Origin: Calothrix sp. HK-06
GTDB lineage: Bacteria; Cyanobacteriota; Cyanobacteriia; Cyanobacteriales; Nostocaceae
Assembly: GCA_001904745.1 (NCBI GenBank)
Contig: MRCD01000152.1
Span: forward strand, 1-16,720
DNA: 16,720 nucleotides
Direction: 5' to 3'
The notes beneath the pieces are model-generated. The model worked only from the letters and a program-made list of their open reading frames with translations, made no database searches and was not told the origin of the DNA. Shown piece after piece: positions 1 to 16,720 of this stretch. The position numbers and the translations under genes were made by a program. The stretch's first letter is position 1. Every line of letters starts with the position of its first letter.

Positions 1-98
1 TACATCACTATACGCACGTTCATGACGCTTGAAAAAACTTTGCGATTTACTGAATATAGTTTGTAGCGGTGCCTATGGATGGTGGGAAGATGCTTGGT
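1..98 (+). promoter_or_regulatory. candidate promoter / oriT region upstream of the relaxase gene
   Basis: In MobV plasmids oriT normally lies just upstream of the relaxase gene. The only structure seen is an imperfect inverted repeat (tacatcactata at 1-12 versus tatagtttgta at 54-64). The window is cut at position 1, so this cannot be judged properly. Confidence 0.2.
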
Positions 99-1826: not shown

Positions 1827-1831
1827 GTTAT

Positions 1832-2072
1832 ATGAAAGCAACAGAGTGAGAAAAAATATCCAAACATTGCTCGCTGGATAGACGAACATACTGGTTGGAT
1901 TGAGATTGGTTATAACGTTGATAGTCCTCTTAATTCTTATATCCGCGCGATTGACTGTGGTGGGATGTTTTGAGAGGGAAAGGAGAGTTACGAAACTGTA
2001 GAGGAAGCACTGCAAGATTTAAATGCTGGACTGGAAGATGTTTTAGAAGAAATTTACGGCACCGATAATTAA
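1832..2072 (+). pseudogene. decayed small conserved hypothetical gene (frameshift plus TGG-to-TGA nonsense)
   Basis: ATG 1832 reads MKATE and then hits TGA at 1847. Shifting one base continues as EKKYPNIARWIDEHTGWIEIGYNVDSPLNSYIRAIDCGGMF, then TGA at 1971-1973, then EGKESYETVEEALQDLNAGLEDVLEEIYGTDN, with stop at 2070-2072. The GGMF-stop-EG context looks like GGM(F/I)WEG with Trp TGG mutated to TGA. Recognition of the family is from memory only. Confidence 0.4.
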
Positions 2073-2093
2073 TTTTATTGAGAGGAATTTAAT

Positions 2094-2465
2094 TTATATT
2101 GTGATTGAGCCGGGAGCATCCAAAAAGATTCCCAAATGGGCCTCGCATTTGACAAATTGCTTGCTGTTCCTCAATTACTAAAGGTTCTCTATATAATTTG
2201 GTGCCATGCTTTTTAGCATAATCTACAGCTTGCTCAAATTTCTCAACGCGCTCCTTTTGCTACTTGACCTGCATTTCCAGAACGCCTGCATTTCGTCCGT
2301 AAGATGGAAAAACATTTTAATCCCGTTGATGTCAATAGCTGCTCCTCGTACTTCGTTCTCTACGTAAAAGTATTTTACTGGTAAATCTAAAAGTTGACTG
2401 TACCATTGAGCAGCTGCAACAACATCATTAACAAAATAAAATATAGCTTGAACACTCTTAAACAT
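2094..2465 (-). pseudogene. VOC / glyoxalase-bleomycin-resistance family gene broken by frameshifts
   Basis: The N-terminal part (ORF 2223-2465) reads MFKSVQAIFYFVNDVVAAAQWYSQLLDLPVKYFYVENEVRGAAIDINGIKMFFHLTDE and is VOC-like. The reading frame then degenerates. A different frame downstream encodes VEKFEQAVDYAKKHGTKLYREPLVIEEQQAICQMRGPFGNLFG, with stop at 2094-2096, resembling the usual C-terminal DPFGN.FG end of VOC proteins. Confidence 0.5.
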
Positions 2466-2471
2466 ATTTAC

Positions 2472-3011
2472 TTATTCTATTTTTTGTAGTCGGTGCCTAA
2501 ATTCCAAATCTATAATATTTCTAGCTCCTATGAACAATACAATTTCACGCTCAGTTGGAGAAAGCCAAATTTGATATAACTGTTCATCATATTCTTCGGC
2601 TTCAAGTATTGTACCTACTTCCAAATATTTACTTCCAAAAAAATCAGAATTACCAAAATGGAACTCTCCTTCTATTTTTAGTTTTGCTTGCTTCAATCGT
2701 CCGCTCGTCTTGGCTTGGTAATAAGCTTGAGACAGTTCTTCTGAACTTGTAACCTTATAAACAAACTTCTCCATTAATGTATTACATTTTTCTTCTCCTA
2801 ACTTCATCATTAACTTTGATGGTGGTGGACTTTTATAATTTGCTATTTTCTCTTCGTTATCGCCCTTCGGGCAAACTACGTTAACAGCAATCTGAACTTT
2901 TAACTTTTGAATACAATACTTTACTGCTTCTTGTACACTGATATTATGAATCTCGGCTATTTGCTTAACATGAGCAATAAGCTCAAGCTTCCGAAAAGAA
3001 TTAGATTCCAT
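2472..3011 (-). CDS. hypothetical protein (179 aa)
   Basis: An intact ORF with an ATG start and a protein-like composition. The N-terminus (ELIAHVKQIAEIHNISVQEAVKYCIQKL) could be a small DNA-binding helix pair. No family was recognised. Confidence 0.5.
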   Translation of the reverse strand: MESNSFRKLELIAHVKQIAEIHNISVQEAVKYCIQKLKVQIAVNVVCPKGDNEEKIANYKSPPPSKLMMKLGEEKCNTLMEKFVYKVTSSEELSQAYYQAKTSGRLKQAKLKIEGEFHFGNSDFFGSKYLEVGTILEAEEYDEQLYQIWLSPTEREIVLFIGARNIIDLEFRHRLQKIE

Positions 3012-3371
3012 ATTTATTGATGAATGTAAACGTCAACAAAGTATTACTATCCGCTCGCTCCAGGCACCGATTAATCCTAATTATTTTTAATTAAACTCTA
3101 AACTACAGATAAATCAAAATTTTCTCCTTTTTCCTCAACTGCATACTCTAAAACTAATCTTTTTATTTCCTTAAAGTATTTTAGGTATGTTTCTACACTT
3201 TGGAAGATATAAAAGGTGAGAAGGTTGAAGTATATAGAGACACTACTGGTATTCCACCCACAGATTATGCGCGTATCATTGGACAGCTGTTAGTAAAAGA
3301 TTACAACTTAATTTAGAACAATAAGAAAGCCTACAACTTCTTCATATTAAATTAACTTTACATACTTGGGA

Positions 3372-4028
3372 TTACTTGAGCAACCCCAATTCCATGCCAG
3401 CGATTAATTGTTGGGCAAGAGGATAAAATATTTCTGCACGTTGTTTAGTCTTAGAACTAAACCCACCATTATCAACAATTTCGCATTTAATTTCAGTTTG
3501 TCCCGGTGACTGCTGCTTTATTACAATCCTACCAAGTTTACCAAGTTCTTTGTGCGTAAACACGTAATAAAAAGTAGTACCTTCTTGTTCCTTGCGAAAG
3601 CTAACTCCCGTGGGCATCTTCATGGGGGTTAAGATGACATTGCTTATTCCTACCATATCCATTACACCGTTCGGCCGTGCGATAAATAGTTCTACTTTAG
3701 GTGGTACAACCATAACAACCACAGCTTCGTTGCTAGGGTCATATTGTTGAAGAACGCTTGCAACTTCACGCTTAAATTCGACGCTTGTCATCCACAAGGC
3801 AACTGAACTATCAGCTTGGGGCACATAAAGAAAATCTTTCCGTGGCGCCTGTAAACCCAAAATGATACCTCTATCCCATTCGCTGTATTGTGCAAGAGCT
3901 ACCTGTAACGCAACACTTCCAAACACTTGTAAAAATGGTCGGTTTGGGTCGGTATGGATTTGCACTATGCCATTTTCAATCAAATGCTTGACCGAAAAAC
4001 TAATTGGGTCATTATGTGAATCTTTCAC
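3372..4028 (-). CDS. hypothetical protein (218 aa)
   Basis: An intact ORF with a GTG start at 4028, preceded by AGGTG 5 nt upstream. No recognisable motifs. Confidence 0.55.
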   Translation of the reverse strand: MKDSHNDPISFSVKHLIENGIVQIHTDPNRPFLQVFGSVALQVALAQYSEWDRGIILGLQAPRKDFLYVPQADSSVALWMTSVEFKREVASVLQQYDPSNEAVVVMVVPPKVELFIARPNGVMDMVGISNVILTPMKMPTGVSFRKEQEGTTFYYVFTHKELGKLGRIVIKQQSPGQTEIKCEIVDNGGFSSKTKQRAEIFYPLAQQLIAGMELGLLK

Positions 4029-4344
4029 GGATACACCTAGTTAACAAAGCTTCAATCATTGTACGGTAAGCGGCGCCAACTTTATGCTACAACCTGGCTC
4101 TCTATTAGCATCGGAACAAAAACCGGGTAATCGCAGTGTTACATGAATGTTACAGAAGTAACCAAGCGCTGTTCGCAGAGCGTGCCGTTAGGCATAACCC
4201 TTGATTTATAGCTCTTGAGATTGCTTAGTAATTTATAGAGTGAGCCACCACACCCCCAATCAAATCCTTATGCAATAAGACTTTTAAGCTTAACCCGGTA
4301 ATAGTTCCAATGATGCTTCTAAGCCTTCCCATGCGAATGTCGAA

Positions 4345-5298
4345 TCACCTATTAAGTGAGTTAACACAAGTATAAATTATTCTTTTAAATCCTTGTACTT
4401 TACGCTTAGGCATTGGCTTGTTAAATTCAGAGGTTAATATTGCTAATCCCTCATTCGATACCAAATAACTCGTATTATTGATTGGGCAATTTTGTGGTGT
4501 ACGTTTTTCAATCAACGCACTACAAATATGATGCCACGGAATGGCACCAAGTAAACTAGTACATATCACCATCAGCGAAGAAGGTAAGTCTACATAATTG
4601 CATAATATATCTTGTGATTTATGCAATATCCAGCAGTAAGACATTAGAGATATTAGTATATTTTCCTTACCAGGAGTAAATACATATTGTGAAGCAAGCT
4701 GGGCACTTGATGTCTGAATGTCAAGATATTGTTTGGTAATTTGACCAATTTGTTTTTTCAATTCATAATCAACTTCAATGTTGATAAAATCGTCGTTGTA
4801 CAAATTGTTTATTGCAATATCTACTAATCCAGTAATTATATCAGTTCGCTTGCGATGCTTCCTATAAATTTCAAATATTACTGTATCGAAACTAGCCTTT
4901 CTATCATTACATGTGATGGGGAGTAGTCTTGCTATATTGTACATCATTGGTTCGCGAAATGATAATTTCTGAGGGGTGTCTGATAAACCCACAAATGTAG
5001 GTTGAATCCCAAAATCCAATATTTCAAGAAATCGCTGCCTAAACAATGCCAATGATTGTTTGCGATTTGTGTGTTTTATTGATTTGTAAACGACGCTTTT
5101 TATGTTTGACCTATCAGGACAGTCGATGCTTACACCGGGAAAGTGGCGCCAGTAAGTTCGTTTATGCTCACCGCAAGCTAAACAAATTTCTCCGAAACAC
5201 GTGCCGCATACTGGTAGTTTATCGCAATACGTTTCATAATCGGCATCGGATGCCTTTATTATATCTCCGTCAGCTATACTGAATGCTGTTACACTCAT
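4345..5298 (-). CDS. hypothetical protein with an N-terminal Cys-rich zinc-ribbon (CoiA-N-like pattern)
   Basis: 317 aa. The N-terminus CDKLPVCGTCFGEICLACGEHKRTYWRHFPGVSIDC has CxxC..CxxC, then a basic-aromatic-His segment, then Cys. This is reminiscent of the zinc-finger N-terminus of CoiA-like proteins. The rest is unrecognised. Confidence 0.55.
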   Translation of the reverse strand: MSVTAFSIADGDIIKASDADYETYCDKLPVCGTCFGEICLACGEHKRTYWRHFPGVSIDCPDRSNIKSVVYKSIKHTNRKQSLALFRQRFLEILDFGIQPTFVGLSDTPQKLSFREPMMYNIARLLPITCNDRKASFDTVIFEIYRKHRKRTDIITGLVDIAINNLYNDDFINIEVDYELKKQIGQITKQYLDIQTSSAQLASQYVFTPGKENILISLMSYCWILHKSQDILCNYVDLPSSLMVICTSLLGAIPWHHICSALIEKRTPQNCPINNTSYLVSNEGLAILTSEFNKPMPKRKVQGFKRIIYTCVNSLNR

Positions 5299-5377
5299 GT
5301 TCGCTCAATTAATAATTATTTAATTACGAACATGCGTGCATTTGCGATGATATTGATTATAAATAATTAAGCGCATG

Positions 5378-5408
5378 AAGAGGAATGTACATAGGTTGTA
5401 CACCTCTT
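5378..5408 (-). terminator. candidate hairpin terminator / regulatory stem-loop after the 5420-5971 gene
   Basis: aagagg(aa)tgtaca-taggt-tgtaca-cctctt forms about 12 bp of stem with a 5-nt loop, starting 11 nt downstream of the stop codon at 5420-5422. It lacks a clean U-tract on the minus-strand transcript. Confidence 0.3.
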
Positions 5409-5419
5409 TACTCTGTGAG

Positions 5420-5971
5420 TTAATTCAAGCAATAGTTATTAAACCAAGTTATAATTCTGTTTCGATAGGCACTAGGGCTTCTGAATGATTCAAACATTCC
5501 ATTTTTTGAATAATTTTGTATATATTCTTGCATTTGCTTTTGATGCTCAAGTAATATTTGTTCTAATTGCTCAGGAGTGATTTCTGCTTTTTGGCTGGGG
5601 TTAGCTTTTGGGTATTGTTCCCGTAGAAATTTCATTTCTGTGTTGAATTCTGTTACGTATAAATCGCATGAATATTGATTGAGTAAAAGGATGTGTGATG
5701 GCTCAGTATCATCGGAGCCAAAGTCGATATTGTAATCTGGTTTTAATTTTTGGTATGCTTTTGCTAATTCTATGCTCATACCATCATTTTTTAAAAGGGG
5801 ATAGTACACATCGTAGTAGCTGAAGGTTTTGCTCCATCCACCGTCGCTCCAAGTTGCATTTGTTGCCTGGTAAAATATCCCAATCCATTGTTTCGTTTCT
5901 TCTACCACATTTATTGCTTCTTTTAGAAATTCAGGAGCGGGAATTGAGAGTTTGTAACTATGTTCAAACAT
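5420..5971 (-). CDS. hypothetical protein (183 aa from ATG 5971)
   Basis: The ORF track starts at 6061, but that would overlap the upstream gene by 62 nt. ATG at 5969-5971 (MFEHSYKLSIP) lies 28 nt after the upstream stop codon and is the more plausible start. No family was recognised. Confidence 0.5.
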   Translation of the reverse strand: MFEHSYKLSIPAPEFLKEAINVVEETKQWIGIFYQATNATWSDGGWSKTFSYYDVYYPLLKNDGMSIELAKAYQKLKPDYNIDFGSDDTEPSHILLLNQYSCDLYVTEFNTEMKFLREQYPKANPSQKAEITPEQLEQILLEHQKQMQEYIQNYSKNGMFESFRSPSAYRNRIITWFNNYCLN

Positions 5972-5999
5972 AATGTTTTTCTTGATAGTTAATAGTTTT

Positions 6000-6692
6000 T
6001 CAATTTGTTGGCGGCATAGGTTCAACTTTATACCGTTGCCGCATGATTCTGAATAACGCAATTCTTACCTCATAGGGGTTGCGATGTGAGTGAAATGTGA
6101 AACACATCCCGTTATTTAATGCCTTTATTTCATCCGATGTTAGTGGTACATGTTCTGCATAATTTGATACTCCTTGCCTATGTGCTATTTCTACCTGTTT
6201 ATTGATGCCAGGTTTTGTTTGTAGCAATTTTAAACATTCAATGGGTATTATTTCTACCATCCAGCTACCATCCGAAGTACTGAACCAGGCGGCACCTATT
6301 TTACATCTACCAAAATTGACGTTGAGGTTGGTAGCGTGCGACTGGGCAATGTTGATGCTATCGTATTCGCCTAATGTTTTTTGATGCCACACAGTATTAA
6401 AAACTTCCCATTTCGTCGGGTTTATTGTACTTTGTCGTACCATGTAACGAGCAGGTGTAGGCGCCAATAGTTGTGTGTCAACCCAAGTGTAGTAATCTTC
6501 CCCTATATACACAGCATGAATAAATGCGCGATTTTTTGATTCGTTTTTATGCAGAATCTCTACTTCGTACCCGTGCGCGAGGGCGACTGGTGTACCATCA
6601 CAAACCCAGGTGTTAGAGTTATCTATGTCTCCATCATATTCGGGGTAAGCGATATTGAGTTTCAAAGTTACCCATACTTTACTTTCACGCAT
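6000..6692 (-). CDS. hypothetical protein (230 aa)
   Basis: An intact ORF with ATG at 6690-6692, preceded by an extremely AT-rich leader. No family was recognised. Confidence 0.55.
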   Translation of the reverse strand: MRESKVWVTLKLNIAYPEYDGDIDNSNTWVCDGTPVALAHGYEVEILHKNESKNRAFIHAVYIGEDYYTWVDTQLLAPTPARYMVRQSTINPTKWEVFNTVWHQKTLGEYDSINIAQSHATNLNVNFGRCKIGAAWFSTSDGSWMVEIIPIECLKLLQTKPGINKQVEIAHRQGVSNYAEHVPLTSDEIKALNNGMCFTFHSHRNPYEVRIALFRIMRQRYKVEPMPPTN

Positions 6693-6967
6693 ATTTTTAT
6701 TAAAATTATTATTAATATAATTGTGTGAGCAATAACGATTTTATTAATATAAGTTATATTATATAAATCGATAGGGTCACATGCTATAACCGCAGCCAAT
6801 TCATTGATAAAATAAAATTCATGTTTACCTTCGTTATCCTCGATTACCAGCATATTGTCTACGTCGTAGTCGATTGAAGAATAACCATAAAGATAGATAA
6901 CTGGCGCCAGTTTAATATTTTTCAATAAGGGCGAAGGTTTGGGGACATTATGGTTAAAGCGCATCAT
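6668..6967 (-). CDS. possible small hypothetical protein (99 aa)
   Basis: The first ~70 aa look protein-like (APVIYLYGYSSIDYDVDNMLVIEDNEGKHEFYFINELAAVIACDPIDLY). The tail (AHTIILIIILIKICVKVKYG) is a translation of the AT-rich leader of the next gene, so the true 3' end is uncertain. Confidence 0.35.
   Translation of the reverse strand: MMRFNHNVPKPSPLLKNIKLAPVIYLYGYSSIDYDVDNMLVIEDNEGKHEFYFINELAAVIACDPIDLYNITYINKIVIAHTIILIIILIKICVKVKYG
6709..6752 (-). promoter_or_regulatory. AT-rich leader with a 12-nt direct repeat upstream of the 6000-6692 gene
   Basis: TTATTAATATAA occurs at 6709-6720 and 6741-6752, a 32-nt period, in an almost pure A/T stretch just upstream of ATG 6692. It is a possible promoter or operator, but low sequence complexity makes chance repetition likely. 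Confidence 0.2.
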
Positions 6968-7168
6968 CTTAATTACGTGTATACTTATGACGTATTTTAT
7001 ACTATAATTGTTTGATTATGATTAGCCACGTTAGTAAAATAAGTACCAGTTAAATTAGGTTACATAACTAGCGCTTATTGAATTACGTGATGGTACTGTC
7101 AAATAATGTTTTTTGTTAGCAATTTATCAATTGCTACCATACCATTGGATTCTGCTATTTTTGGTACC

Positions 7169-8047
7169 TTAAGCATAACAATTGAAAATATTTGTTTGAA
7201 TTGTCAATTCGTCGATATTTTGAGCATAGGCGATTGAAATTGCAGGGTCACGACTATTTTGATATTTACTACCCTTACTACCGCTAAGTTGACCACTTGC
7301 TGAGTCAGCACTGAATAGCAACCCAATAATTAAATTATCATCAAGCTGCCTTTTTGATAGTCCATAGCCATGTAGTTTTATATCGGGTCGCTGCATTTTT
7401 ATTGAAGTCAGTATCGAAAAGACTTCACTGTTTGGGCGCCGTTTTAACCCCCCAACCCCGACCCAGGCATTTTGCTGAATAGTATCACCGTATTGTGAAA
7501 GATGACAATTGTAGTCTGCTGCTGTTTTACCTTGTAGTATAGGTATTACATACGGGAGGTCACGTTCATCAAACTCCTCACAAACTTGGTCGTAGATATC
7601 CAGTAATTCATAATCACATTCCTCGTCAGCATACTCCATGAAACTCGCATGAAGCTCCACCATTGCTTCAAGATGAATATCTTTCAGGTGCTTTTTGATC
7701 TTATGGTATCGATGTATTGTTAAACGTTGATGTGCAGGGACATCGAGTTTTGTGAAATCAATTACCTCATCGAAGCATGGGTAGTCCTGGGTAGAGGCGC
7801 CGACGAGAGAACCACCCACTAACTTACTATTCAGGGCCCATTTATATATAGTACTTGCATATTTTTTTGTGGATGGGTAGGGTTTACCATTGAGTAGTCG
7901 CGTAAATCCGCAATCTAGCAACCAATCTTTGACGGGAAAGGTGGATTTACGATGTTCAATGCGATTGTAGGAAATGCATACTCTTAAAAAATCGCGTGTG
8001 CCCGATTTACCGCAGTTTGGCTGATTCCAGCCAGGAAAAAACAGCAT
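7169..8047 (-). CDS. DpdA-like TGT-fold protein (putative DNA-guanine / 7-deazaguanine transglycosylase)
   Basis: 292 aa. The ordered motifs match my memory of the DpdA / tRNA-guanine transglycosylase superfamily:
- MLFFPGWNQPN at the N-terminus;
- VCISYNRIEHRKSTF;
- WLLDCGFTRL, in place of the usual LDSGGF substrate-Asp motif;
- VIPILQGKTAADY, the (P)V(L/V)QG motif;
- VGVGGLKRRP;
- IKLHGYGLS, the LHGFG motif;
- FSADSAS, the SADS(M)AW motif.
ATG at 8045-8047. No HMM or structure search was possible. Confidence 0.6.
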   Translation of the reverse strand: MLFFPGWNQPNCGKSGTRDFLRVCISYNRIEHRKSTFPVKDWLLDCGFTRLLNGKPYPSTKKYASTIYKWALNSKLVGGSLVGASTQDYPCFDEVIDFTKLDVPAHQRLTIHRYHKIKKHLKDIHLEAMVELHASFMEYADEECDYELLDIYDQVCEEFDERDLPYVIPILQGKTAADYNCHLSQYGDTIQQNAWVGVGGLKRRPNSEVFSILTSIKMQRPDIKLHGYGLSKRQLDDNLIIGLLFSADSASGQLSGSKGSKYQNSRDPAISIAYAQNIDELTIQTNIFNCYA

Positions 8048-8741
8048 TATGTGTTTGGAGATAAGATTTAATGGCGTTTGCGATAAACTCTGCCAACTTC
8101 ACGGGTACGGCATTACCAATCATTTCTTCTAAATTAGTGTTTGTTTCATTACTGAAATCAAAGTTTGACGGGAATGTTTGAATCGCCGCACGTTCAAACG
8201 TAGTCAGTGGTCGTAGTTTTGAATTAATAGGCGCCGTATCACTTGGATGACCCTTATAACCCGGTGGTATCGGTCGATTCGTTCCCCGAATTGTGGGCGA
8301 TGGTTCCGAAATACTGAATACTGCTCGCCTTTTATAACTGCGTGCGTGTCTATAATAATGTTCGATGTTGAGACTATCGCCAAAATAATCACGCACCGTC
8401 ATTGGTTTGAATGACAATCCTGCGTTTAAATAGGGTAGTAACTCATGGTCGGCACCATTGAGTACACCCACACAGATGTAACGTTGCCTGTTTTGGGGTA
8501 CTCCACAATATGCGGCATTGAATACTTTTTCAGTTAATCCATATTTATTACGTTTTAATATTTCGATAACTTGTTTATATTTTTTGCTTTTTTGATAGCG
8601 TTCAACATTTTCCATTACGAATATTGATGGTTGAATGTATTCAATTAATTCAGCAAACCTGATACTCAAATCTCCGCGACCACTATCTTCATTACGGGAG
8701 CCAGCAGAGCTAAAATCTTGGCAAGGTGAATTATGTTTATT
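8007..8741 (-). pseudogene. 5'-truncated DNA (cytosine-5) methyltransferase remnant (motifs IV-X only)
   Basis: The frame is open from the stop at 8742-8744 and reads NKHNSPCQDFSSAGSRNEDSGRGDLSIRFAELIEYIQPSIFVMENV..GVPQNRQR..PSPTIRG..QTFP..GNAVPV. It is collinear with residues ~80-320 of the intact paralog at 9059-10045, roughly 60% identical by eye. Motifs I-III, including the FxGxG SAM-binding loop, are missing. Homology starts at the PCQ codons (~8721-8729). The start in the ORF track is only a TTG (an internal Leu of DLSIRF). Confidence 0.8.
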
Positions 8742-9058
8742 CTACAACGTAAAATCCGCCTCAAAAAGTAATTATAATTATACCTTCTACAAAGTAAGCC
8801 ATTGAAAAACCAATTTTATATTTTTTTAATTATTGAAGAAAATTCTAGGGAGGTCGGCGCCTGGAGCATTAGAGTTTTAGGCTTGACCTTCACTCTCAAT
8901 ACCATGCTTGTTCTTTAACGCACGGCTTGTTAAAGTTATTAGATTCAACAACCGCCTCGTATTTCTCATTAACAAGACTCCTTTTTTGTTAACTTTGCTT
9001 TCTGGGCATCGCAAGCTCCGTTCCTATATGGAACACAGTGAAAGACATTAACTTATTA

Positions 9059-10045
9059 CTAAATTTGTAAGCTAGGTACTAACTGTGTTGATTGCATTTG
9101 TTTAACATTCAACTCAATGTTATCTTTCATATATTGGAGCAAGCATCTTGCAAAAAACTCAGCTAACTTAACAGGTACAGCATTAGCAATCATTTGTTCT
9201 AAATCAGTTTTCGATTGGCTTTTTTCATCAAAATCAAAACTTTTGGGAAATGTTTGTATGTAGCTTCGCTCAATAGTAGTTAATGGACGTAAATCAGGAG
9301 TGAGAGGCGCCGCATCACCAGGATGTAATTTATAAGTTTTAGGAATTGGTCGGTTTACCCCTCTGATTGTAGGACTAGGTTCATCAATACTAAATATACC
9401 TCGTCTTTGATAAGTTCTAGGATGCCTGTAGTAATATTCAAGACCCAGCCTGTTTCCTAAATAATGCCTGATTGTAGTTGGTTCTTTGGATAAATTATAG
9501 TTTATGTATGGAATTAATGCGTTATCAATACCGTTTAATTCTCCTATACAAAAATATCTTTTTCTACTTTGAGGAACTCCGCAAAATGCTGCATTAATTA
9601 TTTTTTCTGTCAACCCATAACCACTATTTTTAAATATATTGATAACTTGGTTATATTTCTGGCTTTTTTGAAACCTATCTACATTTTCCATTACAAACCA
9701 TTTAGGTTTGACCGAAGCAATTATTTTAGCAAACGTGATACTCAAATCACCTCTTCCTAAATTCTCATTGCGCTTCCCGACACTTGAGAAGTCTTGACAA
9801 GGTGGACCAGAAATAATAATATCAGGTTTGAAACTGGTAAAATCATTATAATCGTTTAAATTGCCTAAGTCACAATTATAAATTTCATGCAAGAAGTTCT
9901 TTCTATAAATTTGTATTGCTGGCTCCCAGTTATCAAAAGCTGCTACTATTTTAAAACCTACATTTTGAAACCCTAGAGATAGTCCACCACAGCCAGCGAA
10001 TAAATCAATAGCTCTTAAACTTATCTCATGTGTTTTATTGCTCAT
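9059..10045 (-). CDS. DNA (cytosine-5) methyltransferase, intact
   Basis: 328 aa with the full set of C5-MTase motifs:
- I: IDLFAGCGGLSLGF
- IV: GPPCQDFS
- VI: ENV
- VIII: QSRKR
- TRD with PSPTIRG
- IX: QTFP
- X: ANAVPV. Confidence 0.9.
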   Translation of the reverse strand: MSNKTHEISLRAIDLFAGCGGLSLGFQNVGFKIVAAFDNWEPAIQIYRKNFLHEIYNCDLGNLNDYNDFTSFKPDIIISGPPCQDFSSVGKRNENLGRGDLSITFAKIIASVKPKWFVMENVDRFQKSQKYNQVINIFKNSGYGLTEKIINAAFCGVPQSRKRYFCIGELNGIDNALIPYINYNLSKEPTTIRHYLGNRLGLEYYYRHPRTYQRRGIFSIDEPSPTIRGVNRPIPKTYKLHPGDAAPLTPDLRPLTTIERSYIQTFPKSFDFDEKSQSKTDLEQMIANAVPVKLAEFFARCLLQYMKDNIELNVKQMQSTQLVPSLQI

Positions 10046-10165
10046 TTTAGTCTATAAACCTTAAAGATATTTTGTTGCCTAAATAATACCATAAAATGTT
10101 CGGATAAAACTGGGATTTTACAGAATAAAATTATCCGTATTAAATTTTAAATTTTGATGATTAAG

Positions 10166-11479
10166 CTAATCTTTGTAATTAGAAAATTTACCAATACTAG
10201 GGTCAAATACTACCTTACAAGTATCTGTTACGCCATTTCTGTTTTTAGCGACTATTATCTCCATAATTCTTTTATCACTAGTATTTGAGTTGTAATATTC
10301 ATCTCGATAAAGTAGTAGTCCTAAATCCATATCCTGTTCAATATCGCCAGAATCTTTAATATCAGCCATAGAAGGACGTTTATTACTTTGACCTTCTACA
10401 CCACGATTGATTTGAGCAAGAACTACAAATGGGACATTAAATATTTTAGCAATATCTTTACAAGCCCCACAATATTTACCAATGGCTTGCGCTCTATTTC
10501 CTGCTGCTCTATCCCCAAGCTTTTGAATATAGTCTAATACTACTAATCCTAATTCTCCTTTTTCAGATTCTACTCTACGAAGTGCAGAACGAATTTTAGT
10601 GGGGGTTAGCTCACCTGCTGGAGTATCATCAATTATAATCGGTAATTCAGATAGATTAGATAAACCTTTTACTAAAGAATCATATTCCTCCTCATAAATT
10701 AGATTGTGCATCAGCCTTTGGGAATCAATACCTGTGTGCATAGAGAGGAACCTTTTAGTTAGTTGTTCCTCAGACATTTCTGCACTAAAAAACAATACTG
10801 GCTTATGGATACTGCTTGCAATATAATTAGCCAGATAACAGCCAAACCAGCTTTTACCCATAGATGGTCTAGCAGCAACTACAATTAAGTCTTGTTTAAT
10901 TAAGCCACCAATTAGAGTATCTAAGCCTGTTAAACCTGTAGGGTAAGCAGGAGACGAACCCTGCTCTATCCTATTCAATAAATTAGCTAAACACTCATTA
11001 ATGGGTTTAGGTTGGAATTTAGTTTTATTGTTAGTTGTAATATTAAATAGTTTTTGTTCAGATTGCTCAAATATTTGTTCTAATTCCGTACTAGTATCGC
11101 ATCCTAAATCTACTATTGTATGTCCTACTGATACTAATTGACGGCGTTGGTATTTATCCAGTACTAGGGCAGCGTAATGGTCTATATTTACTGCTGATAC
11201 AGCCCGGTTAAGAAGTTGAGATAATTTAGTGTCACCTCCTACTTTTTCTAAAAGTTTATGGTCAGCCAGCCAAGTAGAAACAGTCATTAAATCTGTTTGT
11301 TTATTATTTTGATATAGCAGTAAAGCTGCTTTATAAATTTGTTGATGACCATGAGTACAAAAAGATTCTACAGGAAGTATGTCAGCAAGTATACCCATAG
11401 CATTGGGGTCAAGTAAAATACATCCCAATATGGCTTCTTCAGCTTCGATATTTCCTAAAAACTGATTACTCTTCGACAT
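10166..11479 (-). CDS. dnaB: replicative DNA helicase DnaB
   Basis: 437 aa. The DnaB N-terminal signature is NIEAEEAILGCILLDPNAM. Walker A is ARPSMGKSWF and Walker B is LVVLDYIQ. The RecA-like C-terminus has LAQINRGVEGQSNKRPSMADIKDSGDIEQDMDL. There is no intein. The start overlaps the upstream gene by 14 nt. Confidence 0.9.
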   Translation of the reverse strand: MSKSNQFLGNIEAEEAILGCILLDPNAMGILADILPVESFCTHGHQQIYKAALLLYQNNKQTDLMTVSTWLADHKLLEKVGGDTKLSQLLNRAVSAVNIDHYAALVLDKYQRRQLVSVGHTIVDLGCDTSTELEQIFEQSEQKLFNITTNNKTKFQPKPINECLANLLNRIEQGSSPAYPTGLTGLDTLIGGLIKQDLIVVAARPSMGKSWFGCYLANYIASSIHKPVLFFSAEMSEEQLTKRFLSMHTGIDSQRLMHNLIYEEEYDSLVKGLSNLSELPIIIDDTPAGELTPTKIRSALRRVESEKGELGLVVLDYIQKLGDRAAGNRAQAIGKYCGACKDIAKIFNVPFVVLAQINRGVEGQSNKRPSMADIKDSGDIEQDMDLGLLLYRDEYYNSNTSDKRIMEIIVAKNRNGVTDTCKVVFDPSIGKFSNYKD

Positions 11480-12350
11480 TTGTTTTGTTAAATAAGTTGC
11501 TAAGTTGTTTGAGTTTATCCTGTGAAATTAATTTCTTTTGGTTATCTTGTATAACCACTGAAGATTGATTTGATGTTAATGGTGTCGATTGTTCACGAAT
11601 GTTAGGCTGTGCTTCGTCACGTATCATTGATAGTAAACAAGCAGCAGGATTTTCTACATTAGTTTTACTACTATACTCTTGAAAAGCTTCAATTGATAAC
11701 TTAACTTTATGATATTCGCGGCTGACTATTTCCTGCTTTAGTTTTGAATTAATCTTAATTCCCATTTCGTTGATTAATTGAAATATATCTAAGTTTTCTG
11801 ATTGAACATTCTTCTCATGAATTTCTCTGGTTATATAAATATCAGTTGTAGAGGAACTTGTATTAGATTGATTTACTCTTATAGGGACTATTTTTTTATC
11901 AGAGTGAACAGGAACTACCTCTCGTAATTGTGAGCGTAAACGTTCGCACTCGTCTCTAAGTTCGTAAATTTCTGCTACATGACCTCTAAGTTTTTCATTT
12001 TGATGTTTAAGTTCCCTAACCTCTGTTTCTAGTTCTCTAATTCTTTGCTTGGCAACTTCATGTAAAGTTTTAAGGCTATGGGGTCTTGGGTCTTTTTGTT
12101 CTAACGTATTTAATGTAGACTCCTTTTCATGTTGAATTTCGTGTATATATACTTTAATTTCATCCCATTTATAGAGATAAGAAATAGAACATCCTGCAAC
12201 ATTAGCAATCGAAGCAAATGTCAATGGTTGTTTTTGAGCAAGTATTTCTTGAATTGCTTTTAATACTTGCTCTTTTTTTTGTTCCTTTTTTTGGGCTTGA
12301 GTGCGACGCAGAACTTCAGCTTGTTTATCGCGATTATGATTTTTAACCAT
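11466..12350 (-). CDS. HTH plus coiled-coil protein, TnpC/DUF6262-like accessory protein of Tn554-type recombinase modules
   Basis: 294 aa. The basic N-terminus is followed by a probable HTH (PLTFASIANVAGCSISYLYKW) and then a strong heptad coiled coil (IRELETEVRELKHQNEKLRGHVAEIYELRDECERLRSQL). It overlaps both neighbours (8 nt and 14 nt). The family assignment is from memory of proteins found next to paired Tn554-like integrases. Confidence 0.5.
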   Translation of the reverse strand: MVKNHNRDKQAEVLRRTQAQKKEQKKEQVLKAIQEILAQKQPLTFASIANVAGCSISYLYKWDEIKVYIHEIQHEKESTLNTLEQKDPRPHSLKTLHEVAKQRIRELETEVRELKHQNEKLRGHVAEIYELRDECERLRSQLREVVPVHSDKKIVPIRVNQSNTSSSTTDIYITREIHEKNVQSENLDIFQLINEMGIKINSKLKQEIVSREYHKVKLSIEAFQEYSSKTNVENPAACLLSMIRDEAQPNIREQSTPLTSNQSSVVIQDNQKKLISQDKLKQLSNLFNKTNVEE

Positions 12351-14169
12351 TTGTTAAATCTCTTAATTGTGGTAGCCATTTATCCATTGCCTCGATAGTG
12401 GCTCTGGCTTCTTCTTTCGCTAGTTCAGCACCTGCTTGTCCTGCTTCTTCTAGTCTTTGATGTTCTCCTTTATACTGGCGTTCGTAGAGAGGTAATTTAG
12501 CTGTGCTAGGACGAAAACTAGAACAGCCATAGCATTTAGGGTAAAGATTAATAGGACAGGGCGTTTTGGGTTCAAGAACACAGTGTCCATAAACTACTAA
12601 GCGTGGGGCTATTTCGAGGTCAAGTTCGTGTGCTTTAGAATTTTTAATTAGGCTTTCTGGTAAAGTTTGCCAAGGAAGGAACTTGTTATCAGGGTTCATT
12701 AACAGTTCCTGAAAAGGCAAGTCTACTGCTGCTACCTGCTCCCTAGTAGGGGGTGCATAGTTTTGAAAAGTAGTACTACTTATTGTATGGTCAGCATAAA
12801 GTTTAGCAGCTTCAATACCGTATTTTACACGTATTTCTTGCAATCTGTTGTGGCGAGTAATTTTACCTGTAAAATGAGGTCTTTGCCCGTTGGTATCACG
12901 GATGTTTTCTTTTTCTATAAGTAAACGAATAATGCATACCATTGTATTTTCCTTGACATTTACACGGGGTGGAATTGGTAAGGGTTTCATGTTAGTAAAG
13001 GCTGGGTAAGAATCATTTTTTACATTTATAAAATGACAAAACAGATATGGATACTCTAACTCCAATGTTTGTCTTATCCATTGCTGTTGTTCTTCAATTA
13101 TTTTTCTAATTTCACGAGTGGCAGGTATTTGATGCCATCGCTTAGTTTTATGTTGATAAAATTTAATATACCATTTTTGATTTTCTTCCACTAAGCAATC
13201 AAATAACAATTGGCAAATATCTCCTGGACGAGCAGCAGTATACTCCTGTATTAAGTAATGACAAGCAATAAATGCAGGAATTTTAGATAGATTATTTTGA
13301 ATGGATGTGCGCGTTACTTCATCCAACCAGTCTGGGTCATTTTTAATTTCTTTGAGGTAATCACGCCGACGAATTAAGTATGATGAATTAAGCCCTAACC
13401 ATTCAAAAAAACATTTTAGATAGCTTAGTTTGTGATTGATGGTTTTATTGTCGCAATCCTTATAGTTATCTAAAAAACTTAGCAAGGCTTCGCGGCTAAT
13501 ATCGGTAGCTTCTTTGATGTTGAAATTTTCTACAATTTGTCCAAACTGCTTTAAATTTGTTAGAGAGTGTCTAATTCCTGACGGAGCAGAATAAGCTCTC
13601 GATTTGAGTAAGTATTGTATATAGTTTTTAACCTCTAATTTATACCATTGTGGTAAAACTTTTTGAAAATTAATTGATTGTGGATAAGGATTATCGTAGA
13701 AATGTCTTAAATCCCAAATATCATCATCTAAATAGAAAGGCGGCAATTTATTTTTTGTTTTGCCATCTATCCAACTTCGACAAAACGTTGAATTAAGTTC
13801 AAAGCTAGTACCGCAAAAGTGACAATGACACTTTTCTCGTGTATGTTTTGTTGTATAAATCCACCCTTTTTGTCCATTATATCCTACTTCATTACAAACA
13901 GGATTAGGACATTCTATATCAGGACGATAGTTGCAAGTATAGGTAGGAACTGAAGAAGTTAGAGATACCCACTTTTCACAATTACTACACATAAATCTAA
14001 TCTTACATTTTGAAGTGTCTTTAAAATAAGTTTTCTTAAGATTACTTTTCTGACAGTTTGGGCAAATAAATTCGCCTTTATAATCCTTCTCCCAATCCAC
14101 CTTTAATTGTCCGTGTAAAGTAGGATGAATAGAGATAGTAGAAGATTGTTGTTTAGTCATTAAATTCAC
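12343..14169 (-). CDS. tyrosine recombinase-like protein 3, with N-terminal zinc ribbons and a C-terminal Cys cluster
   Basis: 608 aa. The GTG start at 14167-14169 overlaps the upstream TGA (GTGA); an alternative ATG is at 14160. The N-terminus has CPNCQ..CSNCEKW and CPNPVC..CHCHFCG. The recombinase-like core has AARPGDICQL (Arg), TRHNRLQ (a degenerate HxxR box) and ADHTISSTTFQNY (His..Tyr). The C-terminus has CVLEPKTPCPINLYPKCYGC. Confidence 0.65.
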   Translation of the reverse strand: MNLMTKQQSSTISIHPTLHGQLKVDWEKDYKGEFICPNCQKSNLKKTYFKDTSKCKIRFMCSNCEKWVSLTSSVPTYTCNYRPDIECPNPVCNEVGYNGQKGWIYTTKHTREKCHCHFCGTSFELNSTFCRSWIDGKTKNKLPPFYLDDDIWDLRHFYDNPYPQSINFQKVLPQWYKLEVKNYIQYLLKSRAYSAPSGIRHSLTNLKQFGQIVENFNIKEATDISREALLSFLDNYKDCDNKTINHKLSYLKCFFEWLGLNSSYLIRRRDYLKEIKNDPDWLDEVTRTSIQNNLSKIPAFIACHYLIQEYTAARPGDICQLLFDCLVEENQKWYIKFYQHKTKRWHQIPATREIRKIIEEQQQWIRQTLELEYPYLFCHFINVKNDSYPAFTNMKPLPIPPRVNVKENTMVCIIRLLIEKENIRDTNGQRPHFTGKITRHNRLQEIRVKYGIEAAKLYADHTISSTTFQNYAPPTREQVAAVDLPFQELLMNPDNKFLPWQTLPESLIKNSKAHELDLEIAPRLVVYGHCVLEPKTPCPINLYPKCYGCSSFRPSTAKLPLYERQYKGEHQRLEEAGQAGAELAKEEARATIEAMDKWLPQLRDLTNG

Positions 14170-15608
14170 TTCCTTTTCAAATTTTCTAGTTGTTCTAGTC
14201 CTTTTAATCGAGCTTTTATTAAATCGCCGAGACGATTAATTTCAGTAACTCTTCTTTCTTGCATTAGATTTTCTGCTTGTTGTAAATCTTTTTGTAAGCT
14301 TGTATAATCAGCTTCTAACTTAGTCTTATCTTCTAAAGTTACTCGATGGTGGTCACAACTTAAACAGGCATAGCGAAGATTGCAATCACCTAACATGCTT
14401 GGTCGATGGCATTCTCCCAAAGGAGTACTAACTTTGAGAATCTCAGCTAATTTCTCGTATCTACGTTTTCTAGGTATAAAGCTAGTAACCTGACCATACA
14501 TATCGACATAACCTTTAGAATTAGCCTCTTTCTCTAATCGTTCCAAAGAACGTTTTCGATAATGTGGCAACATATCCAAAGAGCCATGACCCAAAACCGC
14601 AGCAATATATTCATCTTCTGCTTCGCAGTAAGCCATGATGCTAGCTTTAGTACGGCGAAAATGATGGCTAGTAAGATGAAACTTATTACCATGCTTATCT
14701 TTAAGGTTTACTTCTTCTCTAAAATCTTGTAACCAAAGTCTAATTGTATCAAAGCGTAAAGTTTCAGGTTTATAAACTGGCTCTACCTGAAATCTTTTAC
14801 CATTATAGCCATGATGTGAAACATCAACTTTACAAAATAATTTATCAAATTTAGAATTAGCACCAAATTGAACCTCCAAAAATTTCTGTTGCTCTTGAAC
14901 TAATTCAGCTACCAAATAATTAATTTGATAAAATCGCCAGTGCTTGCGTTTCTCTACCCAACGCAACAAAAACCACTTATCACCTTCCTGTTTTAAACAT
15001 TGACGAGGCATCCTAAGCATTTCGCCTATACGACATCCCAAAACAAGCTGTAGTCGAAATAGCCTTTCCAATGGTGCTGGAAAAAGGTCGAATTGCTGGT
15101 AAATTTGATAAAGAACTTCTTCTGGAATGGTCTCAATTTTCGGAGCTTGTTTTTTTATTTTAAATGGAGTGTATATTAATTTTAGCCATCCCTCTTCTGC
15201 CCATAGTTTTAGTGCGTAGACTATATCATTTTGACGTTGTTTTGTAGAACTTTGAGTTATAAATTCTCGCAATATAGTATCAGTTAAATCTTCTGGTTTA
15301 CTATACCCTTTAGACACTAAAAACTTGTCTAGCTGTTTTAAAACGCCATTTCTATGTCTAACAGTATCCAGCGAATGTTTTGCTCTAACACTTGCTAGAA
15401 CTGTTAATTTTGTTAACAATTTTAGCCAGGATAATGAAAAAGTATCAAAATAAATATTTTTAATACGACTAAAATCAGATTCATCTTTGGTATAACCTAT
15501 TGCTTCAGTTGTCCAAACATCTTTCTCTAATAAAGTGATATCTAACAATTTTTGACCAAATTCCGAATTACTTATCCTTGACTGTAATATTTCCAAAGGT
15601 AACATCAT
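14166..15608 (-). CDS. tyrosine recombinase 2 (Tn554 TnpB-like position), with a C-terminal Cys cluster and coiled coil
   Basis: 480 aa. Catalytic-type residues are GCRIGEMLRM (Arg), LTSHHFRRTKAS (HxxR) and VLGHGSLDMLPHY (His..Tyr). The C-terminus has CHRPSMLGDCNLRYACLSCDHH followed by a coiled coil. The ATG at 15606-15608 overlaps the upstream TAA by 1 nt. Confidence 0.8.
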   Translation of the reverse strand: MMLPLEILQSRISNSEFGQKLLDITLLEKDVWTTEAIGYTKDESDFSRIKNIYFDTFSLSWLKLLTKLTVLASVRAKHSLDTVRHRNGVLKQLDKFLVSKGYSKPEDLTDTILREFITQSSTKQRQNDIVYALKLWAEEGWLKLIYTPFKIKKQAPKIETIPEEVLYQIYQQFDLFPAPLERLFRLQLVLGCRIGEMLRMPRQCLKQEGDKWFLLRWVEKRKHWRFYQINYLVAELVQEQQKFLEVQFGANSKFDKLFCKVDVSHHGYNGKRFQVEPVYKPETLRFDTIRLWLQDFREEVNLKDKHGNKFHLTSHHFRRTKASIMAYCEAEDEYIAAVLGHGSLDMLPHYRKRSLERLEKEANSKGYVDMYGQVTSFIPRKRRYEKLAEILKVSTPLGECHRPSMLGDCNLRYACLSCDHHRVTLEDKTKLEADYTSLQKDLQQAENLMQERRVTEINRLGDLIKARLKGLEQLENLKRK

Positions 15609-16720
15609 TATTCTTGCTCCTCTGCCGCTAGATAAACATCTAGGCTCATGTCATTTAGTACATGAGAATAAATATCTTTAGTAGTCGCAATTGAACTGTG
15701 CCCTAATAGCTGCTGAACATAGTGGTCGGCATAACCAGCTTGAAGCATCCTAGTAGCAAAAGTATGCCTGAATAAATGAGGATGTGCTTTAATTCCTGTT
15801 CTATCTTTTAGTTGATAAAAGAGACTATTTAACCTTGCACTAGTCATAGGTTTTCCAATATACTGACCATCCAAATTAACAAACAGCATTCCATGCCTAA
15901 GTTTTTCTGCTTCTTTTGGATATTCTTCTAGTAAATAAGTATGAAAAGTTTCTTGAACCGCCTCTCTGTTATGAAGGACTGGTATTTCTCTCTCTGTGCC
16001 TTTGGCTATCGCTCCATTGGGATTATTGTCCCGCCTTATAACTCTAATTCTTCCTCTTTTATCAAAGTCATGTAAGTCTACTAAATGCAAGCCTAATAGT
16101 TCTCCTCTTCGTATTCCGGTTTCTCTCAGTAGCATCATTATTAGCCTGTCTCTATAGCTATAACAGGCATTTGCCAGTTGACTTACTTGTTCGTCAGTCA
16201 GGCAACCAGGGAAGATTTTAGGCTCTTTTACTTTAATCCGCTTACGTTTTTCTGGAGTGCTTTTAACTATGCCGCGTAAGAAACCACCTCGTTTACCCCA
16301 TCCGTGAACCAATTTGGTAAAAACTTTTTCGTCAATCCTACCTTCTACAATGTGGAATTCGTAAAGCCCTTGAATGGCTGTAACTGCTTGGTTGACTGTT
16401 TTTGGGCTACGTTTAGAAACTATTTCGCGTACTTCTTCACTGATTACTTCTACTTCGCCACCAAGAAGATACCAGTTGACAAAATCAGCTAGTTCTTGGA
16501 GTCCCACATCTTGCCAGTTAAGAGATTTGTATTCTAGCCACTGCCAAAAACCTACTAATCGGTAAGCGTAAGTATTAACTGTATTAGCCGCTAATTGGCG
16601 TTTACGGCAGTAATTTAAGTATCGCTGGATTGGTTCTACTGGTAAGCAAGTTTCTGTGTCAAATACACAGCAAACTTTTTGCTCTGTTTGAGGGTCAATC
16701 CCTCTCTCTAGGCTTATCAT
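15608..16720 (-). CDS. tyrosine recombinase 1 (XerC/D-like, Tn554 TnpA-like position)
   Basis: 370 aa. The N-terminal SAM-like domain has AANTVNTYAYRLVGFWQWLE. Catalytic residues are ETGIRRGELLGL (Arg), HPHLFRHTFATRML (HxxR), LLGHSSIATT (His) and DIYSHV (Tyr). The ATG sits exactly at the window edge, so a longer N-terminus cannot be excluded. Confidence 0.85.
   Translation of the reverse strand: MISLERGIDPQTEQKVCCVFDTETCLPVEPIQRYLNYCRKRQLAANTVNTYAYRLVGFWQWLEYKSLNWQDVGLQELADFVNWYLLGGEVEVISEEVREIVSKRSPKTVNQAVTAIQGLYEFHIVEGRIDEKVFTKLVHGWGKRGGFLRGIVKSTPEKRKRIKVKEPKIFPGCLTDEQVSQLANACYSYRDRLIMMLLRETGIRRGELLGLHLVDLHDFDKRGRIRVIRRDNNPNGAIAKGTEREIPVLHNREAVQETFHTYLLEEYPKEAEKLRHGMLFVNLDGQYIGKPMTSARLNSLFYQLKDRTGIKAHPHLFRHTFATRMLQAGYADHYVQQLLGHSSIATTKDIYSHVLNDMSLDVYLAAEEQE

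Follow-up and report, generated by a model that had tools for sequence, protein, structure and literature searches.

Organization of the Four-Gene Recombination Module

The DNA analysed here is a 16.8-kb contig of Calothrix sp. HK-06, and "the window" refers to its positions 1–16,720. On the minus strand, window positions 11466–16720 contain four tightly packed open reading frames (ORFs) of 370, 480, 608, and 294 codons, which encode three tyrosine recombinases, designated YR1, YR2, and YR3, and a protein of the DUF6262 family. The best explanation, in which we place good confidence, is that this array is the recombination operon of a site-specific integrative element of about 8.1 kb in the Tn554 superfamily. 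The element is arranged in the order tnpA-like gene, two tnpB-like genes, tnpC-like gene, cargo (dnaB and a C5 methyltransferase gene), and AT-rich right end. Its parts in the window, together with the gene that flanks it, are listed below.

15608..16720, minus strand: YR1, TnpA-like tyrosine recombinase, first gene of the element; 370 aa, ATG start
14166..15608, minus strand: YR2, TnpB-like paralogue without N-terminal zinc ribbons; 480 aa, ATG start
12343..14169, minus strand: YR3, TnpB-like large recombinase; 608 aa from GTG, or 605 aa from the ATG at 14160
11466..12350, minus strand: TnpC-like DUF6262 protein, fourth gene; 294 aa, ATG start
10166..11479, minus strand: cargo, DnaB-family replicative helicase; NCBIfam TIGR00665, 446 bits, above the cut-off
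9059..10045, minus strand: cargo, intact C5 cytosine DNA methyltransferase, 328 aa; Pfam DNA_methylase 6.9e-65, inside the mapped ends
8725..9058, minus strand: non-coding AT-rich right end; right-end profile E 1e-21, homologous ends in 20 other loci
8007..8724, minus strand: right flank, 3' part of the target C5 methyltransferase gene; Pfam DNA_methylase profile positions 93–323

The sizes given for the recombinase genes in the initial annotation (370, 480, and 608 codons) and the 1-nt overlap at the YR1/YR2 junction (TAATG) are read directly from the sequence, as is the 8-nt overlap of YR3 with the fourth gene (ATGGTTAA). The 4-nt overlap described for YR2/YR3 (GTGA) is also present if YR3 starts at GTG, but the YR3 homologues and the NCBI model (605 aa) begin at an ATG 9 nt downstream. 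This ATG is more probably the start, and it would give a 5-nt gap to YR2 in place of the overlap. The array was said to end at 11466; the DUF6262 stop and the dnaB start (11479) overlap by 14 nt, and the coupled array runs past this position. The interval 11466–16720 therefore covers the recombination module, but the element itself reaches window position 8725. The Pfam domain Phage_integrase is found in YR1 (1.5e-31) and YR2 (3.7e-9); in YR3 it scores 2.6e-5 with 24.5 bits, under the cut-off of 27.1, together with a SAM-like domain (7e-6). The fourth protein matches DUF6262 at 3.7e-12.

Relationship of the Proteins to Those of Tn554

The reference Tn554 was taken from a plasmid record in which tnpA, tnpB, and tnpC lie beside ant(9)-Ia and ermA. 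Family profile hidden Markov models (HMMs) were built from 37–45 cyanobacterial homologues, and searches were run at Z=1e6. YR1 is 30% identical to Tn554 TnpA over 338 aa (E 9e-45), and its family HMM matches TnpA at 7e-53 (hhalign 99.9%). For YR2, the aligned part of TnpB is its C-terminal 285 aa (E 2e-12), and the family HMM matches TnpB at 1e-18; in hhalign YR2 reaches 98.4–99.2% with Tn554 TnpB and 99.6% with a large recombinase of Legionella. For YR3, 455 aa are aligned with TnpB (E 8e-21), the family HMM gives 8e-26, and hhalign gives 99.2–99.5%. The hhalign alignments of YR2 and YR3 with TnpB span about 400–420 columns, and the two proteins match each other over their whole common length (99.7%, E 1.8e-26, 420 columns). 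In YR2, YR3, and TnpB alike, the C-terminus has a CxnCxnCxxC motif and, behind it, a coiled coil; the N-terminal ~150 aa of YR3 consist of zinc ribbons that are extra relative to YR2. By these profile matches YR2 and YR3 are paralogues of TnpB, and the extra gene is thus a TnpB paralogue.

The fourth protein is 33% identical to Tn554 TnpC over 110 aa (E 7e-11; HMM 2e-12; hhalign 97.2%), and Tn554 TnpC itself scores as DUF6262 (8e-15), in agreement with the earlier description of a TnpC/DUF6262-like gene. It has an N-terminal helix-turn-helix and a leucine-zipper-like helix, followed by a ~170-aa C-terminal extension that is absent from Tn554 TnpC.

The catalytic residues are conserved throughout the family. 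The R..HxxR..H..Y signatures that had been noted in the first two recombinases hold without exception, as R204/H315/R318/H341/Y351 in 38 homologues of YR1 and as R193, H315, R318, H341, and Y350 in 39 homologues of YR2. In YR3, R314/K341/R439/H461/Y471 have no exception in 45 homologues, and an Arg-Lys-Arg-His-Tyr set is invariant in all three recombinases. The third recombinase had been credited with a degenerate box reading TRHNR; its actual box II is K436-I-T-R439-H, and Arg-II, His-III, and Tyr are invariant in the 45 homologues. Because only His-II is replaced (Lys in 36, Arg in 6, Glu in 2, and Ser in 1 of the 45; here K436) and the rest is invariant, the YR3 box is KxxRH and no dead site. 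Type IB topoisomerases have a Lys at the equivalent position, so that a Lys there need not abolish catalysis. In comparison with canonical Tn554, the element has one recombinase more, which is apparently catalytically competent.

Sequence searches of the PDB with the YR2 and YR3 profiles gave no match at E 0.01 or below, and a predicted structure was therefore used for YR3. The AlphaFold model has a mean predicted local distance difference test score (pLDDT) of 72.9, with residues 140–440 mostly above 80, and its 17 best Foldseek matches are all tyrosine recombinases, including XerH, Cre, lambda Int, IntI, and XerA. The TnpB profile match and the fold matches of the model together identify YR3 as a tyrosine recombinase. 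The Pfam results, the TnpB profile matches, and the YR3 model fold uphold the count of three tyrosine recombinases, none of which turned out to be another kind of protein.

Ends of the Element, Target Gene, and Empty Site

The right terminus, ...ACATAA, ends at 8731 and is followed by the junction hexamer TTCACC (8725–8730). On the minus strand the right junction reads ...GTAGAATAAACATAA-TTCACC / TTGCCAAGATTTTAGC..., with the tip at window 8725. The right end contains two direct TTGTAGAA repeats (8740–8747 and 8785–8792), an octamer that occurs 5 times in the window against 0.97 expected. The left tip lies ~103 bp upstream of YR1, beyond the window end at 16720; a Logan contig of the same organism adds 107 bases, beginning CACC / TTATAACAACAAC. 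The conserved ends are window 8725 and the TTATAACAAC terminus, and the two tips give the element its length of ~8.1 kb. A promoter scan of the left end gave one weak match, not above chance.

The right flank translates as ...NSPCQDFSSAGSR... and reads ...(S)PCQDFSSAGSR..., starting at the Cys-Gln codons of Pro-Cys-Gln. The gene split by the element is a C5 methyltransferase gene of a plasmid, cut at the codons of its catalytic Pro-Cys-Gln motif. Plasmid1 of Calothrix sp. NIES-4105 holds the uninterrupted orthologue (L066, 5769–6722; 317 aa, 99% amino acid identity), and this empty site has 98.2% nucleotide identity over 798 bp, with downstream synteny partly kept. The nucleotide similarity starts at window 8728, no more than 3 bases from the tip. 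Comparison with an empty site, the check that the initial annotation had proposed for defining the ends, thus bears out the right boundary. A 13.8-kb relative in Mojavia pulchra splits a different methyltransferase at the same codons, with the junctions GGCTCACC / TTATAAC at attL and ATAATCCACC / CTGTCAAGG at attR.

When further contigs with YR1 or YR3 were sought for the left flank, a single Logan contig with the same end point was found. Although assembled independently, the NCBI contig and this Logan contig break off at the same place, 4 bp beyond the left tip (CACC / TTATAAC; window end 16720 and L001 1–8), possibly because of a second copy, a mixed occupied and empty population, or a repeat in the 5' part of the methyltransferase gene. 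A circular contig with this 5' part at position 1 was ruled out, as the methyltransferase reading frame was sought on the minus strand of window 1–330 and not found there. In NIES-4105 plasmid1, an insertion sequence (IS) transposase lies just downstream of the intact methyltransferase orthologue.

Ends and Junction Hexamer Across the Family

About 100 bp upstream of YR1, a conserved terminus TTATAACAACAAC... is present across loci. With a profile built on three known right ends, homologous right ends were detected in 21 loci, always downstream of the fourth gene. The 21 elements with two mapped ends are 5.0–13.8 kb long, most of them 5–7.5 kb. The right terminus has the consensus ...YTACRNNGTRGAWT.WAYATAA, followed by six variable bases. 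The ends are asymmetric, with ATAA-N6-TTAT (..YATAA-N6-TTATA..) as a short inverted core around a 6-bp spacer. In Gloeomargaritales VI4D9, three 100%-identical copies of 5,418 bp occur in two unrelated flanks and hold the four genes only; copies of this type represent the minimal element, which has no cargo.

The hexamer at the right tip equals the six bases left of the element in 12 of the 21 elements; in the remainder it differs at one position (1/21), two positions (4/21), or four positions (4/21). Two of the four hexamers with four differences correspond exactly to the left flank of a sibling copy: CCGTTC of L036 is the left flank of L035, and GCCACT of L051 is the left flank of L031. In integrative elements of the strand-biased circularizing type (SEs), and by attribution in Tn554, the six bases beside the left end pass into the circular junction and from there to the new right junction (PMC10214605). 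The hexamer pattern speaks for an intermediate that is circular or forms a junction, and for an overlap region of 6 bp, although it does not by itself show which kind of excision takes place, as either conservative or copy-out excision would fit.

Distribution and Origin of the Third Recombinase Gene

A search with YR3 retrieved 179 proteins, nearly all cyanobacterial where an organism is named and many on 4–8-kb contigs. The locus scan, which used one genome per species, yielded 53 loci. The order YR1-YR2-YR3-DUF6262 with stop/start overlaps occurs in about 40 of these, down to 45–58% identity, and a more distant version with the same four genes (29% identity) is present in Acaryochloris. The family also extends to the non-heterocystous Gloeomargaritales, Pleurocapsales, and Crocosphaera. 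The inspected Tn554-clade relatives from outside the cyanobacteria all have two recombinases and a DUF6262 protein: Tn554 itself and elements of Legionella, Novosphingobium pNL1, Bacillus cereus, Mycobacterium, and Microvirga. This two-recombinase layout agrees with the Tn554-related elements of Van Houdt et al. (PMC3414803).

In a neighbour-joining tree, YR2 (88%) and YR3 (100%) each form a clade that includes the Acaryochloris-type and L015b-type orthologues, and the two clades group together with weak support (56%) inside the TnpB family. The two clades point to an old TnpB duplication within the cyanobacterial lineage as the source of the extra gene; given the weak 56% node, the duplication may have a deeper origin. 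From its sequence relationships, the element belongs to a cyanobacterial three-recombinase branch inside the Tn554 superfamily. The distinct lineage of multi-recombinase element that had been suggested for the module holds in this narrower sense.

Databases label the genes "integrase" or "Tn554 transposase B", and no description of this cyanobacterial three-recombinase lineage was found in the searchable literature. The closest report mentions, in passing, a tyrosine-recombinase element of cyanobacteria with comM as its target (PMC9881144). Three further loci deserve mention. In L015, a second YR2/YR3 pair (2926–6178, minus strand), 29% identical and on the opposite strand, adjoins a complete element and indicates a further divergent subfamily. 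The locus L029, binned as Crocinitomicaceae (Bacteroidota), contains a module whose YR1 is 81% identical to a cyanobacterial one and is probably a mis-binned cyanobacterial contig. In L013, a family member (74–5260) lies inside the tnpA-like gene (5146–5880) of a 37%-identical Tn554-like element.

Insertion Targets and the Zinc-Ribbon Array

Targets were identified by joining the left and right flanks into continuous ORFs, which were then assigned by Pfam, in a small and unsystematic sample. The insertion points are listed below, with a caret marking the position of the element.

C5 methyltransferase, at PCQ: the window and L004–L006
HNH endonuclease, at C^SGCH (CxxCH): L021, L027, L031, L040, L048, and L051
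RecD2-type helicase, at D^IDQLPSV: L012 and L014
RecD2-type helicase, at the helix-hairpin-helix GVGP^V: L018 and L044
Transposase of the Mu/rve type, at VIDTY^SR (DDE-transposase D..SR motif): L024
AAA_24 ATPase, at IIIDSL^T (Walker B): L030
TnpA-like gene of another family member, at the Arg-I motif: L013, 5146–5880

For the HNH target, Pfam support was obtained for L040 only; L021 has no Pfam match, and the other four are assigned on the motif alone. Several other insertions fall in unannotated DNA. It is striking, within the limits of this sample, how often the codons of conserved motifs are hit in genes that are characteristic of plasmids, phages, and transposons. The GGTGGCA.CCAC left flanks were considered as an RNA or repeat and this was ruled out, since they are the HNH CxxCH codons on the other strand.

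The zinc-ribbon unit, W..EY..EF.CP.C-(~20)-C..C, is present in one to five tandem copies in the YR3 homologues, which accordingly measure about 605, 677, 749, 815, and 882 aa. All HNH-targeting elements have three to five units and the others have one or two, a relationship that may follow phylogeny rather than function. A wider picture is put forward tentatively: cyanobacteria would harbor a large, active, and undescribed branch of the Tn554 superfamily with a duplicated TnpB, which targets conserved motifs of mobile-element and defence genes and uses the zinc-ribbon array as its specificity module. On balance we are inclined to doubt that all of this holds. If true, such motif targeting would amount to a homing-like strategy.

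Cargo Genes and Plasmid Context

Nostoc T09, Nostoc WHI, and Mojavia have a further gene between the DUF6262 gene and dnaB, which encodes a 425-aa methyltransferase and whose start is overlapped by the stop of the fourth gene. The window does not contain this 1.26-kb gene, and the loss lies between two ATG..AAGAGTAA repeats. These ATG(n)AAGAGTAA repeats form the starts of both genes and are located at window 11466–11479 and at L004 12685–12698 and 13957–13970. The other methyltransferase gene of the cargo (9059–10045) keeps an uninterrupted CCACC-T-TGTCAAG that matches the target consensus of the element, so that a possible insertion site for the element or related ones is part of its own cargo.

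Beyond the right flank, the split methyltransferase shares its last 41 nt with a DpdA-like ORF (window 7169–8047, minus strand; Pfam PF23859, 5e-10), an arrangement suggestive of a pair of DNA-modification genes on the host plasmid. Window 69–1826 on the plus strand encodes a protein in which domains of the Mob_Pre relaxase, DUF3991, and Toprim types are fused. The Mob_Pre relaxase and the synteny to a MOBV plasmid suggest that the contig is part of a mobilizable plasmid. A near-identity search of the module against plasmids gave no match.

Proposed Mechanism

In the mechanism that we propose, the element would excise as a circle whose junction consists of right end, hexamer, and left end, and this junction would recombine with the target by tyrosine-recombinase strand exchange over a 6-bp overlap. 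As in the descriptions of Tn554 and the SEs, the hexamer of the previous site would end up at the new right junction, and after excision the restored attB would be a methyltransferase reading ...GGTAGCCCACCATGTCAAGAT-like. The three recombinases may form a heteromeric synapse whose protomers divide among themselves the recognition of the two dissimilar ends and of the half-sites in the target. If an additional module takes part in reading DNA, the best candidate is the zinc-ribbon array of YR3, and the DUF6262 protein would act as a TnpC-like accessory or directionality factor. In GInts, a group of elements discussed below, none of the four gin genes is dispensable, and circular forms are detected (PMC5385486). 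In Tn554, tnpA and tnpB are required and tnpC modulates (PMC3414803). The 6-bp footprint is common to SEs and Tn554, and the transposition route of Tn554 is still unsettled (PMC10214605).

Several points weigh against the reading of the locus as a Tn554-superfamily element that moves in this way. The lineage is known here from sequence alone, and the division of labour among the three recombinases is something we infer. The pLDDT of the YR3 model is below 50 at residues 461–552, including H461, Y471, and the Cys motif, so that active-site geometry cannot be read from the model. Two mismatches to the empty site directly follow the right junction. The left flank is known for 4 bp only, and attL was deduced from relatives. 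A circular junction (right end-N6-left end) or tandem copy was not found in assembled metagenome contigs, where all 12 pattern matches were unrelated to the family.

The use of two or three tyrosine recombinases on asymmetric ends by Tn554, GInts, and SEs is a question for which this lineage could serve as a compact natural test system, having four genes in 5.4 kb, no cargo, and an intact nucleophile in all three recombinases. Its further assets are mapped ends, known empty sites, and many sub-lineages with different precise targets. With it, the part of each protein in half-site recognition and strand exchange could be assigned, and a possible dependence of target choice on a modular zinc-ribbon array could be tested. 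For annotation, the lineage explains cases in which methyltransferase, HNH, RecD2, and transposase genes of cyanobacteria are found in split form, and it provides a name for a widespread trio of genes now annotated as "integrase" only.

Alternative Explanations

The earlier comparison of the module was limited to recombinase-in-trio (RIT) elements and Tn554 and left out the GInts, which already have the layout of three recombinases plus one small gene. In GInts (ginABCD), the 5' end is occupied by an operon of three recombinase-like genes and a small TnpC-like gene (Bardaji et al. 2017, PMC5385486), with cargo from the stop codon of the fourth gene, an AT-rich 3' end, and short imperfect flanking repeats (PMC5385486). 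They are also named the Tn6571 family (PMC10121019) and have been reported from Proteobacteria, Verrucomicrobia, Bacteroidetes, and Firmicutes, not from Cyanobacteria (PMC5385486). The window might hold a cyanobacterial GInt, in which YR1, YR2, YR3, and the DUF6262 protein are orthologues of GinA, GinB, GinC, and GinD and the operon layout is ancestral, with no separate TnpB duplication; we consider this unlikely. The layout is identical, with the operon at the 5' end, then cargo, an AT-rich 3' end, and short flanking repeats (PMC5385486), and the sizes are similar (401/437/543/132 aa in the Escherichia coli Sakai GInt and 370/480/608/294 aa here). GinD is reported to be TnpC-like, and the DUF6262 family profile reaches hhalign 65.9% with it. 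In the GinC family of enterobacteria, R, HxxR, W, and Y are likewise invariant. (Published descriptions, by contrast, present GinC as having no catalytic motif or first Arg.) The profile comparison, made with the E. coli Sakai GInt and a GinC family alignment built for this purpose, nevertheless speaks against this reading. The YR3 family matches the GinC family with a probability of 0.8%, and the YR3–GinC values overall lie at 0.2–1%; YR2 matches GinC at 60% in box II only and GinB at 8.5–47%, and GinD falls outside DUF6262. With the TnpB proteins of two-recombinase elements, in contrast, full-length alignments at 98% or more are obtained for both YR2 and YR3. The similarity of YR1 to GinA is generic for recombinases (1e-9, against 7e-53 for TnpA). 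The published GInt criterion asks for at least one integrase at BLAST E below 1e-5 and the same organisation (PMC10121019); GinA and YR1 give a BLASTP value of 3.6e-9, which is under this lenient cut-off but again reflects generic recombinase similarity.

An RIT element, with its three adjacent overlapping tyrosine-recombinase genes that all have catalytic motifs (PMC3414803), would account for the gene array at first sight, but we regard this assignment as practically negligible in probability. RitA/B/C of pHG1 show only a generic match to YR1 (hhalign E 1e-9 to 1e-5, against 1e-34 for TnpA) and nothing significant to YR2 or YR3, RITs have no TnpC-like fourth gene, and YR2 and YR3 have the TnpB-type C-terminal Cys motif and coiled coil. 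The separation from RITs that had been drawn from protein size agrees with these results, RIT proteins being about 300–410 aa long (412/314/332 aa for RitA/B/C of pHG1). Beside the RITs of pHG1 (L079, 47083–51199), a 116-aa ORF, a 626-aa "integrase", and a 626-aa hypothetical protein stand in a row, which may be another multi-recombinase module. An arrangement of two nested or adjacent elements, a two-recombinase Tn554-like element and an unrelated integrase, can be dismissed with about equal assurance. Insertions within the family do occur, as in the tnpA-like gene of L013, but the same four-gene order with stop/start overlaps is kept across the cyanobacterial loci down to 45–58% identity, no element ends lie between the four genes, and the 5,418-bp minimal copies hold exactly these four. 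Slightly more room, though still very little, is left for recombinases that serve the replicon in plasmid multimer resolution, inversion, or developmental excision of the kind known in heterocyst formers. The window looks plasmid-borne, and the element splits a gene as nif-interrupting elements do. Against such a role stand the identical multi-copy elements in unrelated flanks, the occurrence of the family in non-heterocystous cyanobacteria, at least seven different target genes, the carried-over hexamer of a sibling copy, and the empty site in a close relative. The "Tyrovirus" three-recombinase phages were set aside because their recombinase genes are dispersed.

Comparison with Known Systems

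The SEs, which have the organization intA-tfp-intB-srap and occur only in Gammaproteobacteria (PMC10214605), resemble the cyanobacterial element in having an ordinary and a large recombinase with a recombinase-fold protein between them, a TnpC-like fourth gene, and a 6-bp footprint. The SE proteins of pAQU1 have no detectable sequence similarity to the family profiles, and Tfp is without the RHRY motif, whereas YR2 keeps R/H/R/H/Y. On these two grounds, membership in the SEs is not supported.

With Tn554 and the transposons related to it (tnpA-tnpB-tnpC; Staphylococcus, Enterococcus, Bacillus, Actinobacteria, Legionella, and pNL1), the element shares a counterpart for every protein, including TnpC as a DUF6262 protein, and the gene order and overlaps match. 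A TnpA-type gene comes first, a TnpB-type gene with the Cys motif is present twice, and the DUF6262 gene is last in the operon. Both have asymmetric ends without long inverted repeats, site-specific insertion, and a 6-bp junction hexamer carried over from the previous site. The differences lie in the number of recombinases, two in Tn554 and three here and in about 40 cyanobacterial loci, in the one to five N-terminal zinc-ribbon units of YR3, in a TnpC-like protein more than twice the length of Tn554 TnpC, and in the many different target genes in place of one att site. The statement that the module fits neither RIT nor Tn554 cleanly holds insofar as it is neither an RIT nor a canonical two-recombinase Tn554, but it understates the link to Tn554 (TnpA at 7e-53). 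The likeness to GInts is one of layout, in the 5' four-gene operon, the cargo that begins at the fourth-gene stop, the AT-rich right end at 8725–9058, and insertion that is often at gene ends or within genes; most cyanobacterial copies differ from GInts in measuring 5–7.5 kb with little or no cargo. Taken together, the layout match and the profile comparisons place the element in the Tn554 superfamily by sequence, with a mode of action that would resemble that of a GInt.

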